DNA of 64,000 bases from Cyanobacteria bacterium P01_F01_bin.150. Its GTDB lineage: Bacteria; Cyanobacteriota; Cyanobacteriia; CAKZMO01. A program made the translations under genes and the position numbers. Location: contig JBCCYL010000008.1 of assembly GCA_039189765.1 (NCBI GenBank), positions 73,697 to 137,696 of the forward strand. Reading direction: 5' to 3'. The notes below the pieces were generated by a model that saw only the letters and a list, made by a program, of their open reading frames with translations, did no database searches and was not told the origin of the DNA. Shown one piece after another: positions 12,033-41,476 of this stretch; position 1 is the first letter of the stretch, and every line of letters starts with the position of its first letter.

Positions 12033-12898
12033 TAGGGATTCAGGTGACGGTGAGGAATCAAAGAGTGAGGCTTCTCTAGACCATGAGCCAGCATTAGTTC
12101 CTCATTGCCCATAATCACTTGGGGAATCCCGTCTGCAATAATCTGGCCTTCGTCGAGTAAAAGGACGCGATCGCACACTTCCAACAAAAACTCCAGGTCA
12201 TGGGACGATATCAGCATGGTTTCCTGGGACGTTTGCAAAAACTGAATTAGGCGACGACGAGCGCGTAAATCTAGGTTAGCCGACGGTTCATCATAAATAA
12301 TCAGCTCCGGCAACATCGAGAGCACAGAAGCGATCGCCACCATCCGCTTCTCGCCACCCGAAAGATGATGGGGCGCATGCTGTTTATGGTCTATCATCCC
12401 CGTTAGTTCCAAGGCCATTTGAGTCCGGGTCTGCACTTCATCGGGAGCCAACCCCATATTTTCTGGGCCAAAAGCGACATCGGCTTCAACTGTTGCGGAA
12501 AAAAGCTGATCGTCTGGATTCTGAAAGACCAAGCCGAGTTCAGGGCGAAATTCTCCTTGAACGACAGGTTGACCAAATAAAGAAATTGCCCCTGATTTAA
12601 GGGGTAAAATTCCACAAATTGTCATAAATAACGATGTTTTACCCGCACCATTAGGACCAATAATGCCAAGCTTTTCCCCTGCACTCACCATAAACGATAG
12701 TCCGTCTAATGTTGGCGGATATCCTGGATAAGCAAACGTGAGAGTTTGAACGTCAAGAATCACCGACCCCAGATCACCAGCCACAGAAACATCGGAGAAA
12801 TGGGACGTAATGAACCGATCAACAGGGCCATTTTGCTCATTAGCCTTGAATGGATCGTTATTTTGAGGAGATGAAGGAGAAGATTTAAGTTGTGTCAT
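12032..12898 (-). CDS. cbiO: Co/Ni ECF transporter ATPase
   Basis: GPNGAGKT, VFQNPDDQLF, LSGGEKR, DEP; operonic with cbiQ and cbiM; start uncertain (12898-12958). Confidence 0.9.
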   Translation of the reverse strand: MTQLKSSPSSPQNNDPFKANEQNGPVDRFITSHFSDVSVAGDLGSVILDVQTLTFAYPGYPPTLDGLSFMVSAGEKLGIIGPNGAGKTSLFMTICGILPLKSGAISLFGQPVVQGEFRPELGLVFQNPDDQLFSATVEADVAFGPENMGLAPDEVQTRTQMALELTGMIDHKQHAPHHLSGGEKRMVAIASVLSMLPELIIYDEPSANLDLRARRRLIQFLQTSQETMLISSHDLEFLLEVCDRVLLLDEGQIIADGIPQVIMGNEELMLAHGLEKPHSLIPHRHLNP

Positions 12899-12996
12899 AG
12901 GAGGATAGTCTGAAATCGCCTTTAGGCGTGGGTACCAGTGAAATGAAGAAAAAGTCAATCCTTACACGATTGACAGTATTGGCAAGAAGCCTGACA

Positions 12997-13893
12997 CTAC
13001 GTCATTGCAGTGCTTCCATGACTGAGCCAATAGTTTGCAGCCAGAAGGCTAATAGCAACCAACAGTGAACAAAAAAGCGCGATCGCATCCCAGGTATACG
13101 TCGACAGTAGAATATGAGGTTTTAAATTTTGGCCATTGGATTTTGGCGTAAAGCTGTGGGGCCGATATCCATATCCTCGAAGTCGCATGGCTTGATAAAC
13201 ACGCTCTGATTGCTCATAACTGCGAATAAAAAGTGTTCCTGCCAACGTTGCCAGGATCATGGTCTGATTGGTCAGCGATCGAATATGAATGGGAAGACTG
13301 GAGGATTCTGTCGAAGAAAGTTGAGGCGATCGCTGAGGGACTTGCTGAGGCGATGAAAGAACCCGAAATCCTCTTAATGTCATGGCCCGTCGCATGCGAT
13401 CTAAATTTGCCAAAATCTCAAACAGATATCGATAGGACAACAGCATCATATCGGTCAGCAGAGCGGGAACTCCCAGTGCTCTAAATGCTTTCACAAGCTT
13501 TAGAAAAGGCGTTGTCCCCAACACAATAAAACCAAGAGTGACACTACATAAAAACCGTCCAGCAATTAATAAAGACGAAAGTAGTCCTTCTCTCCATAGA
13601 GTGAGGGGTCCCCACTGCCATAGAGGAGTCTCACCAGAGAGCCACGGAATAAATAAGACAATGCCCACAAGGAAAAACCCCGGATAGCGGAGACGGGATT
13701 GGAGAAATGACATGGGTAAACATGCAAGTCTGTAGACTAATCCAACAATCAGCACCATCCATGGCAACAGCCACAAGGATTTCACCGCAGCAAATGCCAT
13801 CATCAGCCCCACTAAACCAATCACCTTAAAGCGAGCATCCCACTGGTGGACCCACGAATCTAAATTAGTACAATCATCAAACTGAATCTTCAT
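12997..13893 (-). CDS. cbiQ: Co/Ni ECF transporter T component
   Basis: Hydrophobic; YRYL...MRRAMTLRGF and LFIRSYEQSERVYQAMRLRGY motifs. Confidence 0.9.
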   Translation of the reverse strand: MKIQFDDCTNLDSWVHQWDARFKVIGLVGLMMAFAAVKSLWLLPWMVLIVGLVYRLACLPMSFLQSRLRYPGFFLVGIVLFIPWLSGETPLWQWGPLTLWREGLLSSLLIAGRFLCSVTLGFIVLGTTPFLKLVKAFRALGVPALLTDMMLLSYRYLFEILANLDRMRRAMTLRGFRVLSSPQQVPQRSPQLSSTESSSLPIHIRSLTNQTMILATLAGTLFIRSYEQSERVYQAMRLRGYGYRPHSFTPKSNGQNLKPHILLSTYTWDAIALFCSLLVAISLLAANYWLSHGSTAMT

Positions 13894-14073
13894 GTAGTCC
13901 TGTCCACATATCAACTTTAAAGGGTATCTAAGAAGGCTCCCAGCCCCTTTGACTGGCAAGTCTGACTGACAAGAATTTCAGTCGAAAGAGCTAAAGTCCC
14001 TGTAGCTCCTGTCCAGTGAGGATTATAATCGACTTCGCGGTCACCCTCTTATGAAGCCAAGCCCGCCTCCGGA

Positions 14074-14826
14074 CTATCCTGTCCGTTGCTCGGTCTGCTG
14101 ATGGGCTTGCGGATGAGACGACTGCCCCCTCGTTCGGTCACCTGGCGAATCCAGCAGCTCTGGCTTTGTACGCAAAATAAACACGACAAACGATCCAGTA
14201 AATAGACCTTCTATGATCGCGAGCGGCAAATTAACCAAGGTCATCAAAGAAATAGCAGCCTGCTCGGTCGCAGCGTTTATATCCGCAGGAATCGTCGAAA
14301 TAACCAGAGCAAAAAACAGTAGGGCCGCCCCCATCACCCCCACAAATCCAGCTACCCCTCCAAACAAACCGTGCAGCATTCGAGTCGGAACTCTACCCCC
14401 AGCCGTCATCTTGGGAATTAACCAATGTCGCGATTCAAATAAATGATGAGCTAAGAGAGCAGGTACTCCTAGCAATAAAGTATTCAGTCCTAATGTGGTT
14501 AATCCACCATGACCCAGCAACAATGCTTGAAACAGTAAGCCACTGACAATTGCTGGAATTGCATAATATCCCAGGACAACTCCCAACAGACCATTCATTA
14601 AAAAGTGAATCGTTCCCAAGGGAGGAGGCCCTGGCAAGTAAAGTGATGAAGCCACAAAAAATGTTGCTGTTAATAGGGCCGCTTTAGGAATGGTTCGAGA
14701 CACACCAGCCGGATGGCGACGGGACTGAAGCTCAATACGGCGGAGTGAATACCCGATGAGGGGTACGGCGATCGCATACCCAACGACACTGACTTGAGCA
14801 GGTAGAATTCCATCGGGGATATGCAT
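14074..14826 (-). CDS. cbiM: Co/Ni ECF transporter S component
   Basis: Diagnostic N-terminus MHIPDG; FQALLLGHGGLTTLGLN. Confidence 0.92.
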   Translation of the reverse strand: MHIPDGILPAQVSVVGYAIAVPLIGYSLRRIELQSRRHPAGVSRTIPKAALLTATFFVASSLYLPGPPPLGTIHFLMNGLLGVVLGYYAIPAIVSGLLFQALLLGHGGLTTLGLNTLLLGVPALLAHHLFESRHWLIPKMTAGGRVPTRMLHGLFGGVAGFVGVMGAALLFFALVISTIPADINAATEQAAISLMTLVNLPLAIIEGLFTGSFVVFILRTKPELLDSPGDRTRGQSSHPQAHQQTEQRTG

Positions 14827-16147: not shown

Positions 16148-16241
16148 ATGTTGCAATTAACGGTGATTCTTAGACGAATAACATGGAACAAAGCTATAAC
16201 TCTGTCATGTTTTCAGCGCTTCTATATCTGATGAATTGCAT

Positions 16242-16817
16242 ATGGTTTCCCAACTCCCTCGCACAGACCATCGAACAGATCATCGAATATCTCCCTCTGC
16301 TAAACAACGCTTTCCACATTTAGTCGAAGGGCTGATTCAAGTCTTCACTGGACCCCGCCGTCGTTTTTTCGCTAACGTAATGGCCCAAGCCTTACAGCAA
16401 GCGGGCCAGGGAACGTCTGTGCTGATCGTTCAATTCCTCAAAGGGGGGATTAATCAAGGCCCTGACAATCCAACTCAACTCGCTCAAAATCTTATCTGGC
16501 TACGCTGTAATGTGGCCCGATGCATTACCACTGCTGAGCTGGAGCCTGATGAAATATCAGCCCTTCAAGAGTTGTGGCACTATACGAAAATGCTTGTTAA
16601 GCAAGGAAAATATTCATTGGTTATCTTGGATGAACTCAGTGTAGCCATCGAACTCGGGTTAATTCCGTTGGATGAAGTCTTGCACTTGCTAAACGACAGA
16701 CCCAGCCATGTTGATGTCACATTGTGTGGTCCCCATATGCCCACTGTAATTATGGATATGGCGGATCAAGTCACCGAGCTACGCCAAAGTCCCCGTTTAG
16801 CAGAGATGATATCTTAG
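16242..16817 (+). CDS. CobO/BtuR-like corrinoid adenosyltransferase family protein with degenerate P-loop
   Basis: GLIQVFT, IVQFLKGG, LVILDEL, RPSHVDV, ADQVTEL. Confidence 0.8.
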   Translation: MVSQLPRTDHRTDHRISPSAKQRFPHLVEGLIQVFTGPRRRFFANVMAQALQQAGQGTSVLIVQFLKGGINQGPDNPTQLAQNLIWLRCNVARCITTAELEPDEISALQELWHYTKMLVKQGKYSLVILDELSVAIELGLIPLDEVLHLLNDRPSHVDVTLCGPHMPTVIMDMADQVTELRQSPRLAEMIS

Positions 16818-26752: not shown

Positions 26753-27202
26753 ATGACCCTTTTCAAATTTGAAGATGACTTTGTTCAGTCCCTGCGCTGT
26801 ATTCCAATGAAAGTTAGACTCAAGTTAGACACCTGTGGAGTCAAGCTCAAGCTGGATCATTGGAATGAACTCTCCCTAGATGAGCGATCAGCCTTACTAG
26901 AAATGCCCTGTGCAAGTACACTAGACGCTAAAAATTATCGTATTCACTTACAAGAACTGATAGTGCGATACACAGGAGAACCGGCAAAAGAGTTGGACGT
27001 TAATCCTAATCCTCCATGGTTAGACTCAACCTTTATTCCCCAAGCAGTTCAAGATAAATCACAATCGCTGAATATATCCATTACGCAAAAACAATGGGCA
27101 AAACTGACTCCTCTTCAGCGTTTTGCCTTAATTAAGCTGAGTCGTCCCAGCCATGAGAATCGCAATTTTTTACCTGCAATGCAAGAATTCCATTTAACCT
27201 AA
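26753..27202 (+). CDS. narM: Nitrate reductase associated protein
   Basis: FEDDFVQSLRCIPMKVRLKLDTCG; LTPLQRFALIKLSRPSHENRN. Confidence 0.85.
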   Translation: MTLFKFEDDFVQSLRCIPMKVRLKLDTCGVKLKLDHWNELSLDERSALLEMPCASTLDAKNYRIHLQELIVRYTGEPAKELDVNPNPPWLDSTFIPQAVQDKSQSLNISITQKQWAKLTPLQRFALIKLSRPSHENRNFLPAMQEFHLT

Positions 27203-28199: not shown

Positions 28200-29921
28200 T
28201 TAAAAGCGATCGCCAATATTAAACAGCAGCCCCGTATCGCCATTGTCTGCAATCCCAAACTCCAGCCGTACCGGGCCAATGGGAGTCCGTGCCCGTAGAC
28301 CCAAGCCATACCCTAAGCCTGCCCCTGGTTTATCGCGAATTTCAGCAGGTTCGCCCAAAATAGTGTCTCCGGATCCGAGATCATTGGCGTAATCCACAAA
28401 CAACAACCCACCAATATCGATATCTTCCTTGAAGGCTGTAAAGTCGAAAATCGGGAAGCGATATTCAGCAGTTGCCTGTAAAAAGCTGCGGCCACTGCCC
28501 ACATCGCCTGAATCATAACCACGTACAGAACTACTGCCTCCCAAGCTAAAGGCTTCATAGGGAGGTAAATCGCCAATAAACGTTCCCCCTTGAAGATTTA
28601 ACACCAGAGTTTGGGGACCATCGTCAAACCCAAAAATCGGCATGGGGATAAAGCGTGTATAGTTAGCCGCCAGACGATTGGCAAATACGTCTGCATCACC
28701 CACTGGAATAAACTGATCGGTGCGGAAAAGGAGGCGATCGCCCTCCGTCGGGTACTGATTATCATCGCGACGGTCCCAGGCTGAGGCGAAGGACAAGGAC
28801 AACAGGTCATCCCTTCCATCGCCACTAATACTTAGGTCGTTACCCAGTTCATCATCGGTAAAAATATCGTCGGTAAACGCATCATCTCTGATAGAAACGC
28901 TCTGGTAGGACAGCCCTGTGGCGACAGCAAAATCCGAGGAATAGGAGCGAAAAACCTCCACGCCTCCCCCTAAGCGATGTACCCATGGATCGCGATCGTT
29001 GGCTAGCTCAACCTCGCGATCGCCCCCATTAAATACGGTTTGTACTTCTCGACGATTAAAGAAATTAACGGCCACACCAGTACGATGCTGACCATCCAAG
29101 AGCCACGGATTTGTATAGTTAATATCAAAGCTGGCAACGCTTTCGCCGCCCTCAACCCCTAAAGCAAGGGTCTGGTTATAGCCCAGTAAATTAGTGAGTT
29201 GAAATTGAAGCCCGTTAGAAATACCGCCGCTTCGACTGGTTCCTGGCAATACCGTTGCCGGTTCGGTCGGTCCCATTAAAGCAGTAGGATGGGGCAAGGT
29301 TAACCCAAAGGCAACCGGAAAAGGACGCTTTTCATCGACCGTAATCAGCATTACTGCTTCTCCTGATGCTCCGGGCTGGAGAGATACAGTGGCTGTTCGC
29401 ACAATATCCAAGTTTAGAACACGCTGTAAACCAGCCTTAGCTAACTCAGCATCATAGGCATCGCCGATAGTCAGATCAAACTCACGGGTAATGATAAACG
29501 GACGGGTGTGGCCATCTACCGGTTGTCCATCATCCACATACTGGACTTGAATATCTGTTAATCGCTCTCCACTGCCCTCAGGCACTTCTGCGTCGTTAGC
29601 ATCACTACCAAACTCAGACATGCGATCCTGGGCAAATAGCGATGGAGTATTATAGGTTGGTTGCACTAGCTGACCCGGCTGACCCAGCGATTGACGATCT
29701 TCCGTATTAAGTCTCTGCCAGGAAGGAACCGGAAGCATATTCGAGTTAGCTGATGGTGCCCTGTCCTCCGGGGCTACCATCGTCAATGATGCTGCAAGGG
29801 GAGCCTCCGCCCAGCTAGGAAAAGCGATAGCAACATTTGCCACACTCACCATCGCGGCTCCTGCTATCGGTCTAACAATTTTGTGAATCGTCCATCCCAA
29901 ACACTGATGTCCCAAAACCAT
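28200..29921 (-). CDS. Omp85 (BamA/TamA family) outer-membrane protein
   Basis: One POTRA-like domain; YTNPW; LGGSSSVRGY; TPIGPVRLEFG; C-terminal IGDRF. Confidence 0.88.
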   Translation of the reverse strand: MVLGHQCLGWTIHKIVRPIAGAAMVSVANVAIAFPSWAEAPLAASLTMVAPEDRAPSANSNMLPVPSWQRLNTEDRQSLGQPGQLVQPTYNTPSLFAQDRMSEFGSDANDAEVPEGSGERLTDIQVQYVDDGQPVDGHTRPFIITREFDLTIGDAYDAELAKAGLQRVLNLDIVRTATVSLQPGASGEAVMLITVDEKRPFPVAFGLTLPHPTALMGPTEPATVLPGTSRSGGISNGLQFQLTNLLGYNQTLALGVEGGESVASFDINYTNPWLLDGQHRTGVAVNFFNRREVQTVFNGGDREVELANDRDPWVHRLGGGVEVFRSYSSDFAVATGLSYQSVSIRDDAFTDDIFTDDELGNDLSISGDGRDDLLSLSFASAWDRRDDNQYPTEGDRLLFRTDQFIPVGDADVFANRLAANYTRFIPMPIFGFDDGPQTLVLNLQGGTFIGDLPPYEAFSLGGSSSVRGYDSGDVGSGRSFLQATAEYRFPIFDFTAFKEDIDIGGLLFVDYANDLGSGDTILGEPAEIRDKPGAGLGYGLGLRARTPIGPVRLEFGIADNGDTGLLFNIGDRF

Positions 29922-30140: not shown

Positions 30141-30204
30141 AAACAGGCAGTTTACTGAGAGAGACTCATAGCTATCGTCTTAAAAAATGTTTTAGAGGGA
30201 ATCC

Positions 30205-30513
30205 ATGAAAGTTAAACTAGCCAGCCTTGCCATTACTTCTTCCATCCTTTTAGGAACGGTTGCTTGCGGTGCTAATCCCTGCGCAGGTGCCACGAAGCAG
30301 GAGAACGTTGATCCTTGTGCAGCGGCAGACCCCTGTGCGGCAGACCCCTGCGCAGCAAAGAGCGCCGATCCTTGTGCAGCAGACCCCTGCGCAGCAAAGA
30401 GCGCCGATCCTTGTGCGGCAGACCCCTGTGCAGCGGCTGATCCTTGTGCGGCTGATCCTTGTGCGGCAAAGAGTGCGGATCCCTGTGCGGCTGATCCCTG
30501 TGCTGGAAGCTAA
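30205..30513 (+). CDS. Cys-rich low-complexity lipoprotein with 12 (D/N)PC repeats
   Basis: Lipobox-like LGTVA-C21; then NPCAG plus 11 DPC units; synonymous variation between units; GAGGGA RBS. Confidence 0.85.
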   Translation: MKVKLASLAITSSILLGTVACGANPCAGATKQENVDPCAAADPCAADPCAAKSADPCAADPCAAKSADPCAADPCAAADPCAADPCAAKSADPCAADPCAGS

Positions 30514-30610
30514 GCTTGAACGTCAATCCAATTCTTCCCGTTTAGCGTTTCATTGTTCTTAAGACTTATCCTAAGCAGCTATGACATGGGCAAAAACTGG
30601 AAGGATATCC

Positions 30611-30655
30611 CTGAAGCCCCCGCTAAAGGGGGACTTCAGTTTCTAGCTTTTTTGA
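30611..30655 (+). terminator. GC-rich hairpin followed by T-rich tract between the two lipoprotein genes
   Basis: CTGAAGCCCCC-GCTAAA-GGGGGACTTCAG then TTTCTAGCTTTTTTG. Confidence 0.55.
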
Positions 30656-30822
30656 ATGAAGACGAACATCAGCCCCACACCTTGACAAACGGTGAATGGA
30701 GAGAATAATTCAGAGTTTTGAATCTCAAATATGTACCAGTAGCCTGAGTTAAAGACGTTAGCCTGGGCATAAAAGGCTTTCGCACCGATCACTGAATTGC
30801 ACACTAGCAAAGGGAAATCAAT

Positions 30823-31371
30823 ATGATTGTAAAAAAAATGTGGGTGGGTATGGCGATCGCGTCCACCCTTCTTCTCGGGACAGTCGCTTGTTCCGATAAA
30901 TCTACTTCAAGCGCAGAAAATGCCACCACATCGACTCAAGTCTCTGATGCTGGTGCTCCTAATGCCGATACCGTTACTCCTGATGCCGAAGTTGCGCTGC
31001 AGGTTAACGTGGAAGAGGGTGTTGCGATTGATGGAGCCGACCCAGTGGCCTACTTCACTGAAAGCAAAGCTTTAATTGGCGATGCTGCTTTTGCCCATGA
31101 ATGGCAAGGGGCGACCTGGCATTTTGCTAGCGCTGAAAATCGTGATCTCTTTGCGGAAAATCCCGAGCAGTATGCACCTCAGTATCTAGGCTATTGTGCT
31201 TGGGCCGTGAGCCAAGGATATACCGCTCCCATCGATCCAGAAGCCTGGAAGATTGTCGATGGGAAACTATACCTGAATTACGACAAGCGAGTTCAGGACC
31301 GCTGGTCTAAGGATATTCCTGGCAATATTGCTAAGGCTGATGCTAATTGGCCTGGTGTGCTAGCAAACTGA
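30823..31371 (+). CDS. YHS domain-containing lipoprotein, Cys form
   Basis: LGTVA-C lipobox; AIDGADPVAYF, WHFASAENRDLF, PEQYAPQYLGYCAW, WKIVDGKLYLNY, KADANWP. Confidence 0.88.
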   Translation: MIVKKMWVGMAIASTLLLGTVACSDKSTSSAENATTSTQVSDAGAPNADTVTPDAEVALQVNVEEGVAIDGADPVAYFTESKALIGDAAFAHEWQGATWHFASAENRDLFAENPEQYAPQYLGYCAWAVSQGYTAPIDPEAWKIVDGKLYLNYDKRVQDRWSKDIPGNIAKADANWPGVLAN

Positions 31372-31928: not shown

Positions 31929-34352
31929 ATGGCCCTCTCGTTCGCTACTCTCAATATTACTGACCTGCCTGCTGAAATATTAATTGCTAATCCAGGGCTT
32001 ACGAACGCTATAGCTAACGATAACCAAGATGATGCAAATACGATCCAAACGGTCGTTGATTGGTTGACTGGCCAGCGAGCAATGGGAGTTATGGATGAAA
32101 CAACCATCTATATTCCAGCAGGAACATTTGACCTAGCAACAAGTATTGAAGTCGACACTCCCAATATCATCTTTGAAGGGGCTGGTCCCGGATTAACCGT
32201 ACTCCAGAATGCAAACACGTTCCAAGTCGATACAGCAGAATTGGTTGATGTAGGTGTTAACATTAATTCCGTTAATCGCGATGCATATCTATTCGACCTA
32301 GATAAAAATGCCGATAATGTCATATTTAGAGACCTGACTGTCACAGGAGCAGAGGTTCATGGCGCAATTTTCGGCGTTAGGCTGGACGACCTAGAGATCA
32401 GTGAAGTTGAGTTCAATGATTTTGCATGGAGTTCTATCCGACTCTTTAATTCGAGTAATGCAAAAATCCATAACAACGTTTTCCTCGATGCTGGTGGACA
32501 GGCGAAAAATGGAGCTACAGGCGGTTCTATTTACGGAACATTCCTAGCAGATTCTGAAATATACAATAACGTTATCTCTCGGAGTGAAAATCGAGAAATC
32601 AATGTCTTCGGAATTAAAGGTCGTCAATTCAGAAATACTCGTATTCACCACAACACTATCAATGCTGGTTTTGCAATAGAGCTGCCATTCGAAAACGATC
32701 ATTTTGTAGAAATTGATCACAATTTTCTTAACGGCGCAGTTTCTATTCCAAAGTTCGGTGGAGGAAGTGTACCTGATAACGGTTTCACGTTTCATATTCA
32801 CCATAACTACTTCCAACGGTCTTACTCTCTAGAGTGGGCACGAAATGGTGCTGAAATTGACCACAACGTTTTTGCTCTTGATATTGAGCAAGATAGAGGC
32901 AATCTCATTTCAAACTTTGGAGATGAAGCAGCAGAAGGCCCTACAAAATTTCATAACAACCTCATCATTAATCCTGGGCGAGGAATTTTTTGGAGCGCTG
33001 GCGTTTATAACAACTTTTCCTTCTATAATAATGAAATCATTGCAAATGAAACTGTAACTCCCAGATCTGAAGGACTATTTAGCTTCAACGATAATACAGA
33101 CTTTAGTACCATTGAAATTAAAGACAACATCATTTCAGTAAACGGCATCCCTCGTCCACTCATCCGACGGGAAGCCAGTTACGCAGCAACAATTGAGAAT
33201 AATACCCTCATCAACGTTTCTGATGCTGACCAATTTGATAACCTCAACACTGGTGCCCCCCGTGGTCTGCTTGCCCCTCTGCTCTTTACCGTTGGTGCAA
33301 GGGATGAATTCACTGTTGATGGTGCTAATTTAAGTCCGACAGAGAACGGAGGGTTGCCTACCCTAAGTATTACAATCGACCCCGTCAGCATCTCGGAAAA
33401 TGGCGGCCTAGCAACAGCAACCGTTATCCGTGAGACAGCAACCAATGGAGACTTAACGGTTACTCTCTTCAGCAGTGATACTAACGCTGCCACTGTTCCT
33501 GCTGCTGTCACAATTGCTGATGGCGAAACGTCTGCTAGCTTTACAATTACGGCTGTTGATGACCCGGTGTTCGACCATACCCAAATTCCCACTATCCGAG
33601 CATCTGCGACAGGTTTTTTCCCTGGATTTAACACCATTAGTGTTACTAATGACGAGATGCCAACACGTATCACTAATCAGTTGCTAGCGCTTTACACCTT
33701 TGATGAAGGGACTGGTAACATAGTGGGCGATACCTCTGGAGTGGGTACAGCTCTGGATTTGACCATTGAGGACCCTAGTGATGTCACTTGGGGAACTGGA
33801 ACCCTAACCCTCAATGACCCTACGATAATTACATCTCCTGGCTTAGCCACTAAGCTAACGGATGGGTTAAAAACCACCAATGAACTCACCATTGAGGCCT
33901 GGATAGCACCTGAAAACACTACTCAGAAAGGTCCCGCTCGTATTGCCACGCTGTCGAGAGGTTCGCATAAACGGAACGTTACTCTGGGTCAGAATGGTGA
34001 TAAATATGACGTTCGCCTACGCACAACTGCAACGAATAAAAATGGGACCCCCTCAGTCTCTTCCCCTAACGGCTCTGTTACTACCGATCTAACACACGTG
34101 GTATATACTCGGGAGGCTGATGGTGATGTCTCTGTTTATCTCAACGGTGAGCTAGTCACCACTGGTAATCGAAGCGGTGATTTCTCTAACTGGGCCAATG
34201 ACTATCAGTTTATCTTGGGCAACGAATTAGGCTCTAACCGAGGTTGGTTAGGCACCTATGACCTGATAGCCTTGTACAATAAAGCCTTTGACCTCAATGA
34301 TGTGAGCCAAAATTTTCAGGCAGGTCCGAACGATATTGTTTCCGGTCTATAA
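31929..34352 (+). CDS. Right-handed parallel beta-helix protein with Ig/Calx-beta-like and LamG domains
   Basis: IYIPAGTF, repeated IHNN/IYNN/IDHN strands; ISENGG...VTIADGETSASFTITAVDD; LYTFDEGTG...LTIEAWI...VYLNG; AGGAG RBS. Confidence 0.82.
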   Translation: MALSFATLNITDLPAEILIANPGLTNAIANDNQDDANTIQTVVDWLTGQRAMGVMDETTIYIPAGTFDLATSIEVDTPNIIFEGAGPGLTVLQNANTFQVDTAELVDVGVNINSVNRDAYLFDLDKNADNVIFRDLTVTGAEVHGAIFGVRLDDLEISEVEFNDFAWSSIRLFNSSNAKIHNNVFLDAGGQAKNGATGGSIYGTFLADSEIYNNVISRSENREINVFGIKGRQFRNTRIHHNTINAGFAIELPFENDHFVEIDHNFLNGAVSIPKFGGGSVPDNGFTFHIHHNYFQRSYSLEWARNGAEIDHNVFALDIEQDRGNLISNFGDEAAEGPTKFHNNLIINPGRGIFWSAGVYNNFSFYNNEIIANETVTPRSEGLFSFNDNTDFSTIEIKDNIISVNGIPRPLIRREASYAATIENNTLINVSDADQFDNLNTGAPRGLLAPLLFTVGARDEFTVDGANLSPTENGGLPTLSITIDPVSISENGGLATATVIRETATNGDLTVTLFSSDTNAATVPAAVTIADGETSASFTITAVDDPVFDHTQIPTIRASATGFFPGFNTISVTNDEMPTRITNQLLALYTFDEGTGNIVGDTSGVGTALDLTIEDPSDVTWGTGTLTLNDPTIITSPGLATKLTDGLKTTNELTIEAWIAPENTTQKGPARIATLSRGSHKRNVTLGQNGDKYDVRLRTTATNKNGTPSVSSPNGSVTTDLTHVVYTREADGDVSVYLNGELVTTGNRSGDFSNWANDYQFILGNELGSNRGWLGTYDLIALYNKAFDLNDVSQNFQAGPNDIVSGL

Positions 34353-34589: not shown

Positions 34590-35117
34590 CTACTTGAGTC
34601 GTTCGGCTTTTTGCCGACGGTTTATCTGATATTGATCATAGGCAACGCAGATCCAAGCACCAAATAGCATAAATGTATTTTTGTCCCAGCTCGCCTGATT
34701 ATTTGGAAGCAAGCCATTGGGGCCAATTAACCCAAACGCTAGCAAAAAGCTAAACAGCATCAGCATCATTACGATACCTGCCCAGCGTACAAAGCGGTTA
34801 ATCATCATCAACACGCCAACCAATATCTGCGTTGGCGGCAACAAATATGCATAGGGTAACGAAATAATAGGCGGCAACGGACCAATGCCTTCAAAACCCA
34901 TCCCCCACAAAAGCAGTTTGCCCTGGGTAACGGTTTCAAAAAAGCCGCCGGGTGAATAAAAATGTATAAGGTTTGAAGTGGCTGAAAGAACAAAGAAAAG
35001 CCCCAACATAATACGCATGACAGCAATAGAGAGTCTGAGCATACTGCGTTCAGATTGGAGACCGTTAGAGAGATCAGAGTCCATTAGCATAGTATTTGTC
35101 CTAAGTAGAGAGAGCAC
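34590..35117 (-). CDS. DoxX family membrane protein
   Basis: RIMLGLFFVLSA; about four TM helices; start uncertain (35090 possible). Confidence 0.7.
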   Translation of the reverse strand: MLSLLRTNTMLMDSDLSNGLQSERSMLRLSIAVMRIMLGLFFVLSATSNLIHFYSPGGFFETVTQGKLLLWGMGFEGIGPLPPIISLPYAYLLPPTQILVGVLMMINRFVRWAGIVMMLMLFSFLLAFGLIGPNGLLPNNQASWDKNTFMLFGAWICVAYDQYQINRRQKAERLK

Positions 35118-35139: not shown

Positions 35140-36582
35140 TTAGTCTTGTTGGTCCTCGGAGTCTGGACCGTACTGTAAATAATCGAGGAGGGTTGGAATA
35201 CCTGTTGGCTCAAGGGCTTTAGTAAACGTTGCGGGTCCAACCGTGCGCCATACTAGCAGGAAAGTAGCAGCAACAGTTGTAATCAATATGCCATCGCCGA
35301 CCCATTTAAATGGACCATGAGGAACAGGCTTTGGCCGCACTGAGGGGCTGTGGGCCTGAAACACTTCTTCGGTAATCCACTCGACTGTGGCTTTAAAGTT
35401 GTGAACCGGATTGGGTAAAAGCCTTACATAGGTGCCTTGACGCATCAAATGGCCTGCTCGCCCTGGAATCAAAACTTTGTCAAACAGATACGCCGCACCT
35501 TCTCTGAGTCCCAACTTCATTAGGGTGCCACGCAGGCTAACTTTTACTGGCTTGAGCGACTGTCCCTGGGCAAGCGCCATCAAGTTTGCAGCAATTCCAG
35601 CGCCCTGCTGATAGGCCACCTGGGCGGTCGGCGGTAGGGGAGAATCAAGGATTGAAACATCCCCACCCACAAACACATCTTGGAAAGAGGGAAGTTGCAA
35701 CGTTGGAAGAGCCTTTAAGCGACCAGCGCGATCGCGTTCCTCCACGGTCAGCGACTTCACCAAGGGATGAACATCGTTGCCCGCCGCCCAGACGATAGTG
35801 GCAGCCGGTAGCTCATGAACAGCATCGGCTTGCTTGTATTCAACTTTATCCTGGAAGATTTCCTGGACAGCAGCTTTGGACAGAATTTGCGGACGAACCA
35901 GGCGATTGTCTAGCGCATTTAGGGTCGTCTCTCGCAGAGTACCGTTCAGATCGCCTTTGAGGATTTTCTCGGCGCGATTCAAAACAACAATTTGAATCTC
36001 ATCGATATTCCCCCCCAGTTTGCGATACCACTGGGGCAGCAGGTCTCCTAAAGTAGCAGCCATTTCAATACCAGCGGGACCAGCCCCCACGATTGCGACC
36101 GTTAATAACGCCCGCCGCAACTGCGGATCTTTCGTTTGGCTGGCCTGCTGAAGCTGGGTGCGTAGGTGCTGACTAAGGGCGATCGCATCCGAGCCATCCC
36201 GTAAGGAAAACGTATGCTCTTTTGCACCCTGAATTCCAAAATAGTTAGAAGTACTACCCAGGCATAGGACAAGCTTTCCGTAGGCATAACATAGCCCTGT
36301 AGCCAGCTTAATTTCTTTTTTCGATAAATCGATAGCTGATACACTGTCTTGGACAAAGGTGATGGCATCGCAATTTAAAAGTTCCGCAAATCGGGGCCAC
36401 ACCTGATTAGTAGTCATCTCACCACTCAACAACTCATAGAGCAATGGCTTAAACACAAATCGTTCAGCCTGATCAATCAGGATAATGCGCTCTGGATAGC
36501 TTTTGTTACACAGGTGGAGGGCTGTAAATAATCCTGTAAAACCCCCACCCAAGATTACGGTGGGGAGTGTGGGTACATCCAT
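35140..36582 (-). CDS. Type II NADH dehydrogenase-like FAD/NAD(P) oxidoreductase with C-terminal membrane extension
   Basis: GGGFTGL, FKPLLYE, VGAGPAGIEMA, GGD...PPTAQVAYQQG. Confidence 0.88.
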   Translation of the reverse strand: MDVPTLPTVILGGGFTGLFTALHLCNKSYPERIILIDQAERFVFKPLLYELLSGEMTTNQVWPRFAELLNCDAITFVQDSVSAIDLSKKEIKLATGLCYAYGKLVLCLGSTSNYFGIQGAKEHTFSLRDGSDAIALSQHLRTQLQQASQTKDPQLRRALLTVAIVGAGPAGIEMAATLGDLLPQWYRKLGGNIDEIQIVVLNRAEKILKGDLNGTLRETTLNALDNRLVRPQILSKAAVQEIFQDKVEYKQADAVHELPAATIVWAAGNDVHPLVKSLTVEERDRAGRLKALPTLQLPSFQDVFVGGDVSILDSPLPPTAQVAYQQGAGIAANLMALAQGQSLKPVKVSLRGTLMKLGLREGAAYLFDKVLIPGRAGHLMRQGTYVRLLPNPVHNFKATVEWITEEVFQAHSPSVRPKPVPHGPFKWVGDGILITTVAATFLLVWRTVGPATFTKALEPTGIPTLLDYLQYGPDSEDQQD

Positions 36583-36813: not shown

Positions 36814-39800
36814 TTACTGTTTGGGAAACGCTTTTATTTCTTCTGGAATAGACATGTCCTGGGATTCCAAAGATAAGTGGGGTAAACTACGGCGCTCAGG
36901 AGTCATTCGATCGACCAACGACTTAATAATGATGTAAATGACAGGAACCACAAACAGACTCAGAATTGTTGCTACTAACATGCCTCCAAACACAGCCGTG
37001 CCAAGCGATTGCCGACTGCCAGAGCCTGCACCAGTGGCAATAACCAGGGGAAAAATACTGCTCAAGGTGGAAATCGCCGTCATCAAAATAGGTCGGAGTC
37101 GCTGCTTTGACGCTTCAAGCGCTGACTTGACGATAGAATAGCCTTCTTCCCTCAGTTGGTTGGCAAACTCCACAATCAAAATCGCGTTTTTACTGGCCAG
37201 ACCAATCAGCATTACCAATCCAATCTGGCAGTACACATCATTGGGCAATCCCCTGAGGCTCTGGGCAACCAGCGCCCCCATAATTGCCAAGGGAACCACC
37301 AACATAATGATGAGCGGATCAGCAAAGCTTTCATAGAGAGCAGCTAAAACAAGGAAAACCAGAACTAGGCCAAGGGTAAAGATAATTGGGGCTTGACCAC
37401 CGGATTCCACCTCTTCTAGGGACGTTCCAGCCCATTCATATCCCAGACCAGGGGACAAAACTGCAGCAGAGACTTCTTCCATAGCAGCGATCGCCCTGCC
37501 TGAACTCGATCCGGGTGCTGGACCACCGTTGACTTGAATCGAGCGTAGGCCATTGTAATGGTTAATCGTTTGGGCTCCCGTGGTTTCAGTGAGCTTTACT
37601 AGATTACCCAGAGCAATCATCTCACCGCGCTGCGATCGCACATGGAGTAAATCAATATCACCAGGGTTATCTCTAAATGCCTGGTCCGCTTGCACATAGA
37701 CCCGATAGGTGCGTCGATCAAGGGTGAAATCATTGACGTATTGCGAACCAAGATAAGCCTGTAGGGTTTTAAACACATCTTCCACCTTTACCTGGAGGGC
37801 ATTGGCGCGATCGCGGTCCACCTCAATTTCAATCTGGGGCGTATTGGCAGCATAGGTACTAAACACCCCTTGCAACTCAGGATGTTCGTTGGCTGCACCT
37901 AAAAGCGGCCCTAAGGATTCAACAAACTGATCTAAGCTTAAATTGCCTCGCTGGTCCTGGAGCTGGTATTGAAAGCCCCCAAAATTGCCCAAACCACGCA
38001 GTGGTGGAGGATTAACCGCAAAGGCTCGCACTTCAGTCAGTTGAGACAGCGGCCCCTGGACTCGATCAATCACATTTCGAGCCGACTCAGCAGCAGAGCG
38101 TTGCGACCAAGGAATCAGTGGCGTAAAGATTACGGCACTATTGGCCACGTTACCGCTAAAGCCAAAGCCACCCACCGCAAATACAGCCCGAATTTCTGGA
38201 ATATCCGCATAGATAGCCTCGATCTTCTTCATGGCCTCATCGGTGTAGTTCAAAGACGATCCTTCTGGTCCCTGAACAATGGTAATAAAATAGCCTTGGT
38301 CTTCTTCCGGTAAAAAAGCTGAGGGAACGGCGTTATAAATCCAGACGGTGGAGGCCAGCAGAATCGCAAAAATCGCCAATACTAGATACTTGAGTCGATT
38401 GAGCCGACTCAAAATTGACTCGTACCAGCGCTGAAGATGCGCTTGCGCAGCGTTAACCGTGGAGAAAAGCGGTCGTAGCCAAGGAGCTGTAGGCGGATTA
38501 GGGCGCAGCAGAAAGGCGGAGATTGCTGGGGTCAAGGTGAGGGCATTAAAGGTGGAAACGGCGATCGCAAAGGCAATGGTCAACGCAAATTGCCGATACA
38601 GTGACCCAGTCGTACCGGGAAAAAACGCCACCGGAATAAACACCGCCATTAGCACCAGCGATGTGGCAATCACCGCCCCCGATAGTTCCTGCATCGCCTC
38701 AATGGTGGCCTGCATCGCAGATAAACCCCGCCGCTGAATCTTGGCGGCAATATCTTCCACCACCACAATGGCATCATCCACCACCATGCCCGTCGCCAGG
38801 GTTAACCCAAACAGCGTCAGACTATTAATAGAGAAATCAAACAGTTTGACAAAGGCAAACGTGCCAATCAACGAAATCGGGATAGTAATGGCGGGAATCA
38901 CCGTGGTGCGCCAGTCCTGTAAAAAGATAAAAATCACCAGGACCACCAGACCTACGGACTGAACCAAGGTCAGGGCCACTTTTGACAGCGATTGCTCCAC
39001 AAAATCGGTCGTATCAAAGCCAATGTCATAGGCCATATCCTCGGGAAACGCTTCAGATAGGTGGGCCATTTCGGCCTTTACGCCTCGGGCCACCGAGAGG
39101 GCATTGCTGCCAGGAATCTGATAGATTCCTAGTCCCACCGAGTTGTAGCCTTGAAAGCGCAGAAACGAATTATAGTTTTCTGCCCCTAGCTCAGCTCGAC
39201 CCACATCCTTCAATTTCACTAGGGTGCCATCGTCTCCGGTTTTTACCACCAACTCTTCAAAATCCTGGGTATCCTGAAACCGACTGACCGCTCTTAAATC
39301 AAGCTGATACTGCTGGTCCGCAGGCGCTGGCTGCTGGCCAATACGCCCCACTCCCACTTGGAGATTTTGTTCCTCTAATGCATCTACGACGTCCTGAGTC
39401 GTTAGGTCCCGACTGGCTAATCGAATGGGGTCGAGCCACACCCGCATAGCGTATTTTCGTTCACCAAAAATCCGGACATTGCCAACGCCTTTAACTCGCT
39501 TAAGCGCATTGACGATATACAGGTCGGCGTAGTTACTCAGAAAAATATTGTCAAATTCTCCCGTATCGGAATAAAGCCCAAAGCCCATCAAAATACTGCT
39601 GGATTCCTTTGTGACGGAGACTCCCGTGCGGGTCACGGGCGTCGGCAACTGCGGTTCTGCCACGGACACCCGATTCTGAATATCCACCGCTGCAATATCC
39701 TGGTCCCGATCAGGGTTGAGTGTCACGGTAATCGAACTCGTTCCACTGTTACTACTGCTGGAGGTCATGGAGCGCATTCCCTCCACCCCATTAATTTCCC

Positions 39801-40002
39801 GCTCTAAAATAGTAGTCACCGTGTCCTCGACCGTCCGCGCATCCGCCCCCACATAGTTCGCCCGCACCCGCACCTGCTTGGGCGTAATATCCGGATATTG
39901 GGCAATGGGCAACAGCGGAATACAGACACCTCCAATCAGCAAAGTGATCAGAGCACAGACGATGGTGAAGACGGGGCGTTTGATGAAGTATTGAATAAAC
40001 AT
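36814..40002 (-). CDS. RND efflux permease (HAE1/AcrB family)
   Basis: FIKRPVF, LPIAQYP, GMVVDDAIVVVE, LPEEDQG, KNAILIVEFA, RLRPILMT. Confidence 0.95.
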   Translation of the reverse strand: MFIQYFIKRPVFTIVCALITLLIGGVCIPLLPIAQYPDITPKQVRVRANYVGADARTVEDTVTTILEREINGVEGMRSMTSSSSNSGTSSITVTLNPDRDQDIAAVDIQNRVSVAEPQLPTPVTRTGVSVTKESSSILMGFGLYSDTGEFDNIFLSNYADLYIVNALKRVKGVGNVRIFGERKYAMRVWLDPIRLASRDLTTQDVVDALEEQNLQVGVGRIGQQPAPADQQYQLDLRAVSRFQDTQDFEELVVKTGDDGTLVKLKDVGRAELGAENYNSFLRFQGYNSVGLGIYQIPGSNALSVARGVKAEMAHLSEAFPEDMAYDIGFDTTDFVEQSLSKVALTLVQSVGLVVLVIFIFLQDWRTTVIPAITIPISLIGTFAFVKLFDFSINSLTLFGLTLATGMVVDDAIVVVEDIAAKIQRRGLSAMQATIEAMQELSGAVIATSLVLMAVFIPVAFFPGTTGSLYRQFALTIAFAIAVSTFNALTLTPAISAFLLRPNPPTAPWLRPLFSTVNAAQAHLQRWYESILSRLNRLKYLVLAIFAILLASTVWIYNAVPSAFLPEEDQGYFITIVQGPEGSSLNYTDEAMKKIEAIYADIPEIRAVFAVGGFGFSGNVANSAVIFTPLIPWSQRSAAESARNVIDRVQGPLSQLTEVRAFAVNPPPLRGLGNFGGFQYQLQDQRGNLSLDQFVESLGPLLGAANEHPELQGVFSTYAANTPQIEIEVDRDRANALQVKVEDVFKTLQAYLGSQYVNDFTLDRRTYRVYVQADQAFRDNPGDIDLLHVRSQRGEMIALGNLVKLTETTGAQTINHYNGLRSIQVNGGPAPGSSSGRAIAAMEEVSAAVLSPGLGYEWAGTSLEEVESGGQAPIIFTLGLVLVFLVLAALYESFADPLIIMLVVPLAIMGALVAQSLRGLPNDVYCQIGLVMLIGLASKNAILIVEFANQLREEGYSIVKSALEASKQRLRPILMTAISTLSSIFPLVIATGAGSGSRQSLGTAVFGGMLVATILSLFVVPVIYIIIKSLVDRMTPERRSLPHLSLESQDMSIPEEIKAFPKQ

Positions 40003-40008
40003 TGATTC

Positions 40009-41346
40009 CTAACTCCCCTGCTCCTCTAATTCTTCCTGCCCAACAATCGCCATTCCATTCGATAATTTCAAAATCCCGGACACGACGATCGCATCTCCCG
40101 CTTCAAGCCCCTCTAGAACTTGGTATTGATTGCCTTGAATATCGCCTAATGTGACCGAACGCTGCTGAGCAATCAGCTTTGATTCGCCCGTTTCTTCATT
40201 GGTGGCATCGGTGACAACAAAAATAAATGGCTGTCCAGCCAATCGAGAAATGGCCGTGGCGGGCACCAGAACGCCAGAGCGCTGCTGCCAAATAATTGCG
40301 GCTTCTACCCGTTGATCATCGAAGAGAATATTCGTAGCATTTTCAAAAGAGGCTTCCACGGTCAGGGTTTGGGTCGCCGGGTTGACCTGAGGAGCAATAA
40401 AGCTGACCCGTCCAGTCACGCCTTGGTCATCCTCTGGAGAGCGTCTGATTTCTACAGGCAATCCTAAGCTGAGCCGATCACGATATTCAATGGGCACCGC
40501 AAGGGAAAGATCCAATGTTTGATTTTGAGTAATAGATGTCAACGCATCCCCTGTTTCCACATAGTCTCCCTGCTTTGTCACCATATCGCCAATCACGCCA
40601 TTGATAGGGGCCGTCACCAGGGTGTCTTGGAGATCGGCTTGCACAATGTTGACTTGAGATTGGGACTGGGATAACGCTGCCTCCGCCTCTTTGACCGACG
40701 CTTGGGATTCTTGAACTCTCTCGGTAGCAACATCAAGGGACGCGATCGCCCGTTCCCAATTGCGCGTCACCACATCTAGCTGCTGCTGAGACTCTGCCCC
40801 TTCCTCCACTAAATACTGAATCCGTTGAATTTCTTCCTCTTGGAGGGCGACTTCCGCTTCAGCCCTAACTTTTTCGGCCTCAGCGGTACGCACCTGTGCT
40901 TCAGCATTGGTCACAGCAGCCCGAGCAATACGAGTGTTGGCGATCGCCGTATTCACCTCTGCCTGACTACGATCGGGACTAAGACGCAGAATTGGATCCC
41001 CCACCGATACCGTATCACCAGAATCAACAAAGATATTCACGATCTGACCATCCATTTCAGGCTTGAGGACAACCCCTTGTTGAGCGTCTAAAGTACCGAT
41101 AAAGCTGGAGCGATCCTCTAAAGTACTTGTCTCTAGCGCCAAAATATCTACGGGAACGGGGCCAGTTTCCATCGTGGGCTGGGGCCGCGATCGCCCAAAC
41201 ACCCACCAAAGAGCCGCTAAGCTCCCTAGCAACACAGCAATCAGAATGGTCCATACCCAGTTAGCAGTTTGAGAGGTTCGGTGCAAAGCTGATGATGAAG
41301 ATACGTCCACCTGAAGGTGGCTAGATTGGGCATGTGATAGTTTCAT
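40009..41346 (-). CDS. RND efflux periplasmic adaptor (MFP)
   Basis: N-terminal TM helix, lipoyl-like halves, coiled coil, VTAPINGVI, VLEGLEAGD; ATG 41346 chosen as start. Confidence 0.92.
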   Translation of the reverse strand: MKLSHAQSSHLQVDVSSSSALHRTSQTANWVWTILIAVLLGSLAALWWVFGRSRPQPTMETGPVPVDILALETSTLEDRSSFIGTLDAQQGVVLKPEMDGQIVNIFVDSGDTVSVGDPILRLSPDRSQAEVNTAIANTRIARAAVTNAEAQVRTAEAEKVRAEAEVALQEEEIQRIQYLVEEGAESQQQLDVVTRNWERAIASLDVATERVQESQASVKEAEAALSQSQSQVNIVQADLQDTLVTAPINGVIGDMVTKQGDYVETGDALTSITQNQTLDLSLAVPIEYRDRLSLGLPVEIRRSPEDDQGVTGRVSFIAPQVNPATQTLTVEASFENATNILFDDQRVEAAIIWQQRSGVLVPATAISRLAGQPFIFVVTDATNEETGESKLIAQQRSVTLGDIQGNQYQVLEGLEAGDAIVVSGILKLSNGMAIVGQEELEEQGS

Positions 41347-41476
41347 TATTGAGATGGTTTGAGTGGGAATGAAGAGATACTGCCCCCATAGTTGCCATGA
41401 AGCTGGGCAGTAAACATCCCCCAAAAGGCTTAAGTTTCATATCAATGTTACAGAACTCCAACCCAAATTTACCAAA

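Follow-up and report, generated by a model that had tools for sequence, protein, structure and literature searches.

A 64,000-nucleotide stretch of DNA from Cyanobacteria bacterium P01_F01_bin.150 (contig JBCCYL010000008.1 of assembly GCA_039189765.1, positions 73,697 to 137,696; hereafter the window) was analyzed around a gene at 30205..30513 (plus strand, stop codon included), which the list of open reading frames (ORFs) and the translation give as a cysteine-repeat lipoprotein of 102 aa, named REP (P0001 in the searches). Judged from its sequence, REP is a real and selected product, a predicted Sec-exported, lipid-anchored poly-cysteine chain. It is not a singleton: alignment places it as one member of an unannotated family of cyanobacterial lipoproteins of 56-104 aa, and its [DN]PCA[AG] array recurs as a reusable module on exported proteins of at least three phyla (Cyanobacteria, Proteobacteria and Myxococcota). 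REP is tentatively read here as a tethered multi-cysteine carrier or relay arm that would engage in thiol, disulfide or persulfide chemistry with single-cysteine redox domains of the periplasm.

The REP gene and its product

A Shine-Dalgarno-like GAGG (30195..30198, plus strand, read from the sequence) lies 6 nt before the ATG. The N-terminus, MKVKLASLAITSSILLGTVAC, comprises a basic start, a hydrophobic core and a lipobox-like TVAC, and set against the lipobox consensus of bacterial lipoproteins this layout (MKVK-LASLAITSSILLG-TVAC) is that of a lipoprotein, that is, of a signal peptidase II substrate. The predicted signal peptide is encoded at 30205..30267 (plus strand), with the codon of Cys21 at 30265-30267, and is followed by GANPCAG-ATKQENV and then by the DPC units. 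The array as a whole (30274..30510, plus strand) has 12 units, namely one NPCAG and, after an acidic spacer, 11 DPC units; NPC stands at residue 24 and DPC at residues 36, 42, 47, 55, 60, 68, 73, 79, 84, 92 and 97. By type, the units are DPCAA (five), DPCAAA (two), DPCAAKSA (three), a terminal DPCAGS and the first unit NPCAGATKQENV. Array cysteines are 5-8 residues apart and, with the lipobox Cys, bring the total to 13 in 102 aa. This unit listing agrees with the first-pass annotation, which had described a 102-aa lipoprotein with 13 Cys, an NPCAG and 11 DPC units in three spacings. The mature part (from Cys21) has 82 residues (A29, C13, P12, D11, K4, S4, G3, N2, T1, Q1, E1 and V1); F, W, Y, H, M, R, L and I are all absent, which includes the aromatic and His residues already reported as missing.

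The array is predicted to be disordered: the Atlas model has a pLDDT of 0.36, AF2 run with 49 sequences gave 48.2, secondary structure is absent and REP offered no fold that could be compared. No Pfam family matched REP, the sole NCBIfam match was a 13-bit chance match to an adhesin model, and no model of either collection was matched at its cut-off. Neither was a description of the [DN]PCA[AG] array found in Pfam, NCBIfam or the literature searched, and the literature searched on Cys-rich cyanobacterial lipoproteins held nothing relevant; the first-pass annotation, too, knew of no characterised function for this repeat type.

SmtA is cytoplasmic, folds round a Zn4 cluster and uses His, and Csp1-type proteins are four-helix bundles. 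REP shares with SmtA/BmtA and Csp1 a high Cys content and the possibility of binding soft metals in thiolate clusters, but it is predicted to be exported, lipidated and disordered, it has no His, and it matches no Pfam family. Its signal peptide and its Cys spacing of 5-8 likewise set it apart from SmtA, as had been proposed.

Selection on the repeat

Codons vary between the repeats (GAT7/GAC4, CCC7/CCT5 and TGT9/TGC4). When the 11 DPCA units were compared pairwise, 111 of 111 DNA differences fell at third codon positions and 0 at positions 1-2, and all were synonymous; among the 36 single-base changes possible in a DPCA unit, 8 would be. The peptide is therefore taken to be under selection, as had been argued from its synonymous codon variation. 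The pattern RAYCCNTGYGCNGS occurred 12 times in the window, always within 30274-30506 (0.10 expected; 0 of 100 shuffles reached 12), and Tandem Repeats Finder reported a 39-nt higher-order unit in the REP gene (4.5 copies, 83% match).

That REP is a functionless chance ORF in slippage-prone repeat DNA has next to no chance of being right. Three further ORFs (41-100 aa, other frames) overlap the gene, and its G+C content is 59.5% against 46.8% for the window; the long ORFs in two other frames (30260..30562, plus strand, and 30272..30526, minus strand) can be put down to the repeat, as its by-products. Against such an origin, units differ from one another by synonymous changes alone, 49 aligned relatives keep the signal peptide, lipobox and end motifs, and relatives number hundreds across phyla. 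For practical purposes, the chance-ORF reading was refuted by the alignment together with the synonymous-only differences.

Stand-alone relatives

Among proteins of 56-179 aa, 91 relatives of REP were found at E<=0.01, and the short set kept for counting comprised 84 proteins (<=115 aa, starting with M, REP included). A Cys at about residue 21-22 after a hydrophobic stretch is present in 78 of the 84, and PC units range from 3 to 12 per protein, the 12 of REP being the highest number. An alignment of 49 relatives shows one plan: signal peptide (MK.KYL...), invariant lipobox Cys (Cys21 of REP), often an immediate NPCAG, an acidic T-EEV spacer, the DPCAA array and a DPCAG[SG] end. The signal peptide and the invariance of Cys21 argue for the exported, tethered poly-thiol chain that the first-pass annotation had pictured. 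The sources with names are cyanobacteria of filamentous type, most of them marine or mat-forming: the proteins include some from Leptolyngbya, Nodosilinea, Oscillatoria and Synechococcus PCC 7335, and the loci some from Halomicronema, Phormidesmis, Spirulina, Leptothoe and others.

When 185,579 species genomes were scanned, more than 598 stretches matched, of which tblastn confirmed 109; the set retained has 80 loci (numbered with the prefix L). These are cyanobacterial (69), from other named groups (8: Rhodobacteraceae, Ectothiorhodospiraceae, Myxococcales and an actinomycete) or labelled 'uncultured bacterium' (3). A stand-alone gene, defined as an ORF of <=135 aa with at least 4 [DN]PC[AG] units that ends inside the locus, was present in 50 loci and in the window. 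Several array proteins may occur in one genome, as with L005 and L006 in one metagenome-assembled genome and L018 and L069 in another. Five loci have a second small lipoprotein gene just upstream of the repeat gene (L019, 5116-5490; L028, 3036-3344; L035, 4834-5226; L058, 2608-2952; L067, 5248-5547), whose product has a lipobox, acidic Ala-rich repeats (EAVEGAADKAGEAV...) and a short C-terminal DPCAA array and matches no Pfam family.

The array as a module on exported proteins

In a logo of 1625 array cysteines from 202 proteins, in which P and C are fixed by site selection, position -2 is D in 57% and N in 37% (D/N 94%), position +1 is A in 96%, and position +2 is A in 83% or G in 10% (93%). 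The dominant Cys-Cys spacing is 5 (CX4C; 779 of 1464 intervals), most other intervals are 6-8, and a protein carries 4-25 array cysteines.

Proteins of 180-2000 aa related to REP numbered 110 and were tallied by hand from the precomputed Pfam column. The partner domain is YHS in 43, thioredoxin in 30, DM13 in 18, a SoxA/TsdA-type cytochrome c in 5, cytochrome P460 with a peptidoglycan-binding domain in 1 and DUF6789 in 1; 12 had no family, and a separate scan of these gave 3 weak YHS and 4 weak P460 matches. A Rieske fusion was seen among the short matches (P0080). A second census, with the NPCAAK array of the Halomonas cytochrome P0108 (residues 36-131) as query, returned 948 proteins at E<=0.01. 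The best 120 of the 948, tallied by hand, comprised SoxA/TsdA- or CCP-like cytochromes c (52), proteins without Pfam family (44), YHS (12), P460 (10) and DM13 (1) proteins and one low-complexity match only. The second-census sequences beyond the earlier sets numbered 109; 71 have CxxCH and 32 were unclassified. In most of these proteins the array comes after the signal peptide. Some DM13 proteins carry it at the C-terminus, some cytochromes have it to either side of the domain, and in a membrane protein it lies within a loop.

Outside the array, the DM13 fusions have exactly one Cys, in AVIWCR (20/20), and in the YHS fusions inspected the sole Cys that belongs neither to array nor to lipobox is in YGGYCA (15/15). 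The thioredoxin fusions inspected have WCxxC (19/19). A lone extra Cys (M[IV][QN]xC) stands about 38 residues past CxxCH in 51 of the 71 haem proteins (27 by script, 24 by eye), which is also the number of hand-tallied PF21342 proteins, the two sets not being matched protein by protein. Going by these motifs, most array partners hold one conserved, presumably reactive Cys or a CxxC; P460, Rieske and a CusF/DUF5666-like domain are the exceptions to this theme. The literature searched on the DM13 domain held nothing on bacteria. With so many exported redox proteins bearing it, the array probably carries sulfur, electrons or soft metals outside the cytoplasm.

The signal peptide start MK[VIL][KTQ]Y[LF]..[LA]A.[AS]S is common to stand-alone, YHS-, DM13- and thioredoxin-linked cyanobacterial forms; with starts so similar, signal peptide and array look like one inherited N-terminal cassette. 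The lipobox is distributed unevenly: it is found in 78 of the 84 stand-alone proteins and in all 30 thioredoxin forms, in none of the 18 DM13 fusions, and it is absent from 29 of 44 YHS fusions. Since stand-alone and fused forms are split in this way, a lipid-anchored array could dock soluble array-bearing proteins. This bears on a structural reading, in which CX4C loops or inter-chain disulfides would staple the array into a stiff stalk and REP would be an anchoring hub or envelope cross-linker, as is OmcA of Chlamydia, a small Cys-rich lipoprotein. The linker position between anchor or signal peptide and domain is in its favor, as are the several array proteins in single genomes and one fusion with a peptidoglycan-binding domain (P0131). 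It is nevertheless improbable. The YHS protein of the window has its own lipobox and no array, and so needs no hub; arrays also stand C-terminally, flank a domain or lie in a membrane-protein loop. The [DN]PCA[AG] unit is conserved throughout, more strictly than a spacer would need, and array cysteines have no preference for even numbers (49 even, 35 odd; n=84), so that strict intramolecular pairing would not be required.

The downstream YHS gene

A gene for a lipoprotein of 182 aa lies downstream of REP (30823..31371, plus strand) and was assigned by Pfam and NCBIfam to the YHS (seleno)protein family. It has the LLGTVAC lipobox of REP, a Cys-free low-complexity linker and a C-terminal domain matching Pfam YHS (35.8 bits, cut-off 30.3), and it matches NCBIfam NF041384, 'YHS domain-containing (seleno)protein', at 172.1 bits (cut-off 70). 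Its single conserved Cys, Cys125 of GYC (codon 31195-31197), is invariant across 82 aligned sequences and falls at the position that the GxU selenocysteine takes in the selenoprotein members. Cys/Sec exchange at one site is typical of a redox nucleophile. With an invariant Cys at the Sec position the protein resembles the other members of NF041384, but it lacks the array, which is fused to 16 of the 17 YHS ORFs in the fetched loci. Selenoprotein members of NF041384 are listed with the motif GxU in the available text of PMC13188914, and YHS-family selenoproteins were, in the part of PMC1976440 at hand, first reported from a worm symbiont (see also the excerpts of PMC2398784 and PMC9312934).

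The AF2 model of the YHS protein is confident over residues 66-182 (mean pLDDT 83.5). No solved structure was matched by sequence (E<=1), and Foldseek gave 0 matches in the PDB at E<=0.001; what it did align was a 28-residue YHS sub-motif of toluene monooxygenases. The family has 6085 representative clusters at E<=0.001 (3496 at 1e-10). The array is present in 2 of the best 150 YHS representatives and thus looks like a lineage-specific add-on, not a family trait; being optional, it fits an add-on that could also be supplied in trans.

YHS is the commonest cyanobacterial partner of the array, and in the window it is encoded separately. The link to the YHS gene proposed in the first-pass annotation is borne out by the 43 fusions among 110 long relatives, with 3 weak ones, and by a tandem in L027, the sole other locus with the arrangement of the window: there a REP gene is followed after 52 bp by a YHS lipoprotein gene. 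The L027 YHS protein is the closest to that of the window (64% identity), and a few PC units remain in its linker. In both places the signal peptides of REP and YHS are near-identical, which suggests that the stand-alone gene arose by duplication of a 5' module.

Neighborhoods of the stand-alone genes

No conserved operon was found around the stand-alone genes of the 51 loci (50 loci and the window). Their neighbors fall into at least four unrelated synteny groups, with cupin/FGE-like genes upstream; DUF2227 upstream and HIBADH/nitroreductase downstream; NUDIX/deacetylase upstream and S16/KhpA downstream; or an MtnA-like gene downstream. Counted singly, the recurrent genes are an FGE-sulfatase-domain lipoprotein about 150 bp upstream on the same strand (17/51), a divergent cupin-like gene, mostly beside the FGE-like one (17/51), a HIBADH-like dehydrogenase (15/51), a nitroreductase (15/51), DUF2227 (9/51), NUDIX (7/51), a deacetylase (6/51), an MtnA-like gene (4/51) and S16/KhpA (3/51). 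The neighbors of fused YHS genes are housekeeping genes.

The FGE-like (PF03781) protein has about 325 aa and its own lipobox; the cupin-like gene encodes 202 aa and matches no Pfam family above cut-off. The FGE-like loci are L007, L015, L030, L038, L039, L043, L047, L048, L053, L054, L055, L060, L064, L068, L069, L070 and L075, with at least five different downstream contexts. The FGE-like neighbor scores far below the cut-offs for PvdO (71 bits vs 500), EgtB, GldK and SenA. It could be a cysteine-modifying or copper-dependent partner.

A cysteine-modifying partner would make the array the substrate of that FGE-sulfatase-like lipoprotein, or of an unlinked MNIO, with the modified form serving as a metallophore or bearing reactive aldehydes. 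The recurrence and placement of the FGE-like gene favor this, as do weak matches to NF038108, 'Cys-every-fifth RiPP peptide CefA', and the precedent of modified precursors with a signal peptide or lipobox in the available text of PMC12452194. It is nonetheless quite unlikely. No FGE-like, MNIO, DUF2063 or radical SAM gene was found among the 48 ORFs of >=120 aa in the window, and MNIO, DUF2063 and radical SAM were absent within 4 kb in the 50 loci, from 24 cluster representatives and 109 further neighbor ORFs (one representative per further cluster, >=130 aa). The FGE-like neighbor falls far short of every NCBIfam cut-off, and the 17 loci are not all independent, because many share synteny. 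Formylglycine enzymes recognize CxPxR, which the array unit does not fit. The NF038108 scores seen lie below the 30-bit cut-off. These absences, and the presence of the array on folded exported domains, weaken the multi-core modified-peptide precursor offered in the first-pass annotation.

REP resembles CefA in having a Cys every fifth residue, and 24 of 49 relatives (best E 4e-4) and the fusions P0115 (25.1 bits) and P0116 (19.5) match NF038108 weakly; REP itself gave no match at E<=1. It differs in having a lipoprotein signal peptide, not a leader, and no maturase neighbor. No mention of NF038108 or 'Cys-every-fifth' was found in the literature searched.

The closest described kinds of protein are the bufferins BufA1/BufA2, oxazolin (HvfA, with EGKCG repeats) and the 'CxxxxC' precursors, which are MNIO-modified, Sec-exported and Cu(I)-binding in the available text of PMC12452194 and PMC11252979. 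In the former, about 16% of Buf2 carry a lipoprotein signal, bufferin-type proteins have up to 58 Cys, DoxX is a core gene of bufferin clusters, and Buf1/cytochrome c/FGE-sulfatase fusions are reported. REP shares with bufferins and oxazolin the N-terminal Sec signal ahead of a Cys-bearing core, repeated short Cys motifs, a periplasmic site (as predicted for REP) and fusions or neighborhoods with cytochrome c, FGE-sulfatase and, less clearly, DoxX. It differs in that no MNIO (DUF692/PF05114) or DUF2063 gene adjoins it or its counterparts in the 50 related loci (<=4 kb); its unit is [DN]PCA[AG], not EGKCG; it matches no Pfam signature, DUF2282 included, and BufA2 (NCBIfam) matched 1 of 49 relatives (E 0.15). 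Moreover, the array occurs mainly in cyanobacteria and is found joined to redox domains that fold.

These proteins are part of the case for a sponge or chaperone of soft metals, with Cu(I) the likeliest (or else Cd, Hg or Zn); its periplasmic thiolates would buffer the metal or hand it to partners. Such a role, rather unlikely on its own count, is nearly as likely as the carrier arm. REP is rich in thiolates and built from small residues only, aromatics being absent, and the weak matches to NF038108 and BufA2 point the same way. YHS is a metal-associated domain family, and FGE proper is a copper enzyme, which gives weight to the FGE-sulfatase-domain lipoprotein directly upstream in 17 of 51 loci; CutA1 occurs in 7 of these neighborhoods. 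A large proteobacterial group, further, has a CusF_Ec/DUF5666-like beta domain between two arrays. It matched CusF_Ec at E 0.013-0.1 (3 of 8) and DUF5666 at E 6e-4 to 0.22 (3 of 8), all below cut-off; the Atlas leads were DUF5666-like at 0.85. Members of this sizeable NPCAA-array family are P0355, P0361, P0362, P0371, P0373, P0374, P0382, P0386, P0387, P0391, P0398, P0400, P0402, P0407 and others. On the other side, the CusF-like matches all lie below Pfam cut-offs; genes for resistance to, or transport of, copper or another metal (CopA, CusCBA, CopC, multicopper oxidase, HMA) do not recur beside the gene in the 51 loci, and the 110 fusion partners include none; and neither MNIO nor DUF2063, through which the Cys could be protected as heterocycles, was found close by. 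At -2, D and N replace each other freely, which argues that the carboxylate is not a ligand, and the YHS subfamily of the window keeps one Cys only.

A proposed multi-cysteine carrier arm

The partner domains slightly favor thiol or sulfur redox chemistry over metal binding. REP would be the stand-alone form of the module, with 12 exposed Cys per chain, each in a [DN]-P-C-A-[AG] turn. The reactive Cys of a partner (or its Sec, or Cys-ligated haem) would be joined to an array Cys in a mixed disulfide, persulfide or thiosulfonate; the adjoining array Cys, five residues off in a CX4C pair, would resolve the adduct; and oxidizing or sulfur equivalents would be held on the chain, or passed along it, until a membrane-linked system reset it. 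Because the REP and YHS lipoproteins would be tethered to the same membrane face, the arm in the window could work in trans on the YHS protein, as a tethered thiol/disulfide or sulfane-sulfur pool. What the sequences show is the gene, the selection on its peptide, the family, the fusions and the single conserved Cys of the partners; the chemistry of the arm, its direction and the system that resets it are what we infer. Among the functions offered in the first-pass annotation, redox handling thus comes out slightly ahead, metal binding stays close behind, and no single one is settled.

The SoxY carrier is a folded domain paired with SoxZ, and its single Cys lies in a C-terminal GGCGG. In SoxY/SoxAX/TsdA systems, as in the array proteins, a reactive Cys on a flexible peptide would take sulfur from a Cys-ligated haem domain: the SoxA/TsdA Cys ligates the active-site haem and forms an S-thiosulfonate, and the SoxAX adduct is resolved by thiol-disulfide exchange with the carrier-arm Cys of SoxY, as described in the available part of PMC4423706. 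A SoxA/TsdA-like haem domain with a lone conserved Cys is the commonest proteobacterial array partner (best 120 of 948). The array differs in offering 4-25 Cys in a disordered repeat, and REP has no Pfam SoxY match; no sox genes were found in the window. The resemblance would lie in the proposed mechanism only. The C-terminal Cys pair of MsrA and the CX4C shuttle loop of Ero1 are flexible pairs that resolve a mixed disulfide or sulfenate and pass it on. Theirs is one pair per enzyme within one polypeptide, whereas the array is long and tandem and also occurs as a separate lipoprotein.

A candidate resetting system lies about 4 kb downstream of REP: a MauE/DoxX-like membrane protein gene (34590-35117, minus strand) and, 23 bp from it, a gene for a pyridine-nucleotide-disulfide oxidoreductase of 480 aa (35140-36582, minus strand). 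The pair may be such a system or a coincidence. In L034 the repeat gene has an oxidoreductase ortholog (56% identity) 1.7 kb away. Redox neighbors that were seen in single cases are a DsbA-like gene in L040, a GST/Grx-like gene in L039 and a DoxX gene in L025, 43 bp downstream of the REP counterpart (1 of 50 loci).

Several observations weigh against a carrier arm. No CcdA/DsbD-type or thioredoxin gene was found as a conserved neighbor of the stand-alone genes. Five of the 51 loci have a YHS gene at a distance of up to about 4 kb (L007, L027, L039, L053 and the window; L061, left out as its ORF runs off the end, would be a sixth), and it stands immediately downstream of REP only in L027 and the window. 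The two window genes may each have their own transcript: a G+C-rich hairpin with a T-rich tail, a possible REP terminator (30617..30632, plus strand; consensus scan, 1 site vs 1.7 expected, not significant alone), and a promoter-like TTGACA-16-AATAAT (11/12; 30682..30709, plus strand; consensus scan) upstream of the YHS gene suggest separate transcripts. About 27 of the 32 unclassified second-census proteins have the order signal peptide, array, Cys-free beta domain of about 75 aa, array, a partner that is neither thiol nor redox; P460 and Rieske partners perform one-electron chemistry. In fused relatives the array replaces the ordinary Cys-free linker of array-less relatives, and to some extent it may just serve as a tether. 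Even numbers of cysteines are not preferred, as noted above, and the link with CX4C shuttles is one of analogy. A complex prediction for REP 22-102 with YHS 62-182 scored 0.00 (mark 0.32) and is evidence neither way.

Carried further, the array in general would be a portable multi-cysteine 'swinging arm', a repeated counterpart of the SoxY Cys, and would carry sulfur or electrons covalently for at least five unrelated families of periplasmic domains (YHS-Cys/Sec, DM13, thioredoxin, SoxA/TsdA-like and P460-like cytochromes) in Cyanobacteria, Proteobacteria and Myxococcota, with REP as a membrane-tethered pool of arms. This broader proposal, for the whole and for the role of REP in it, is on balance doubtful.

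Other features of the window

Divergent from REP is a gene for an Omp85-family protein of 573 aa (28200-29921, minus strand), closest to the chloroplast Toc75/IAP75 model (274 bits, below cut-off); none of the other loci showed this pairing. The YHS gene is followed directly, at 31929-34352 (plus strand), by the gene for a protein of 807 aa that combines a right-handed beta-helix with a C-terminal LamG/concanavalin-like domain; in L025, too, a large LamG protein is encoded close to the repeat gene. Between the window proteins and the loci one ortholog each was found for the Pyr_redox_2 gene (L034) and a VTT gene (L025).

The only clear metal-transport genes in the window are an ordinary CbiM/CbiQ/ABC ATPase set for ECF-type cobalt or nickel uptake (12032-14826, minus strand), near which lies a corrinoid adenosyltransferase gene (16236-16817, plus strand), and an AcrB/HlyD efflux pair (36814-41424). 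A nitrate-reductase-associated protein (PF09655, 212 bits) is encoded at 26753-27202 (plus strand), with no nitrate reductase gene among the large ORFs of the window beside it, and an IS-type transposase (rve integrase core and HTH_21) at the window end (63066-63893, plus strand). Rfam found 0 families over the whole window, and a megablast of the window against plasmids gave no match.

Significance

Unpaired cysteines are, as a rule, avoided in exported proteins. The one-Cys unit of the array is strictly conserved and present 4-25 times per protein; it occurs in at least about a thousand proteins (948 in one search) and is joined repeatedly to periplasmic domains centered on a single Cys, Sec or Cys-ligated haem. 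The array falls among exported cysteine-repeat modules, with a genuine possibility that it represents a new type of carrier for sulfur or electrons outside the cytoplasm. The candidate roles (carrying sulfur or electrons covalently, acting as an unmodified Cu(I) sponge, or serving as the substrate of new Cys chemistry) have none of them been described for an array repeat of this kind. With 82 residues, mature REP is small enough for direct metal-binding, redox and mass-spectrometric tests, and the array would give a testable partner to two large families, the YHS (seleno)proteins and the bacterial DM13 proteins. If the swinging arm were true, it would be a new mode of extracytoplasmic thiol and sulfur redox handling and the first functional handle on both families.

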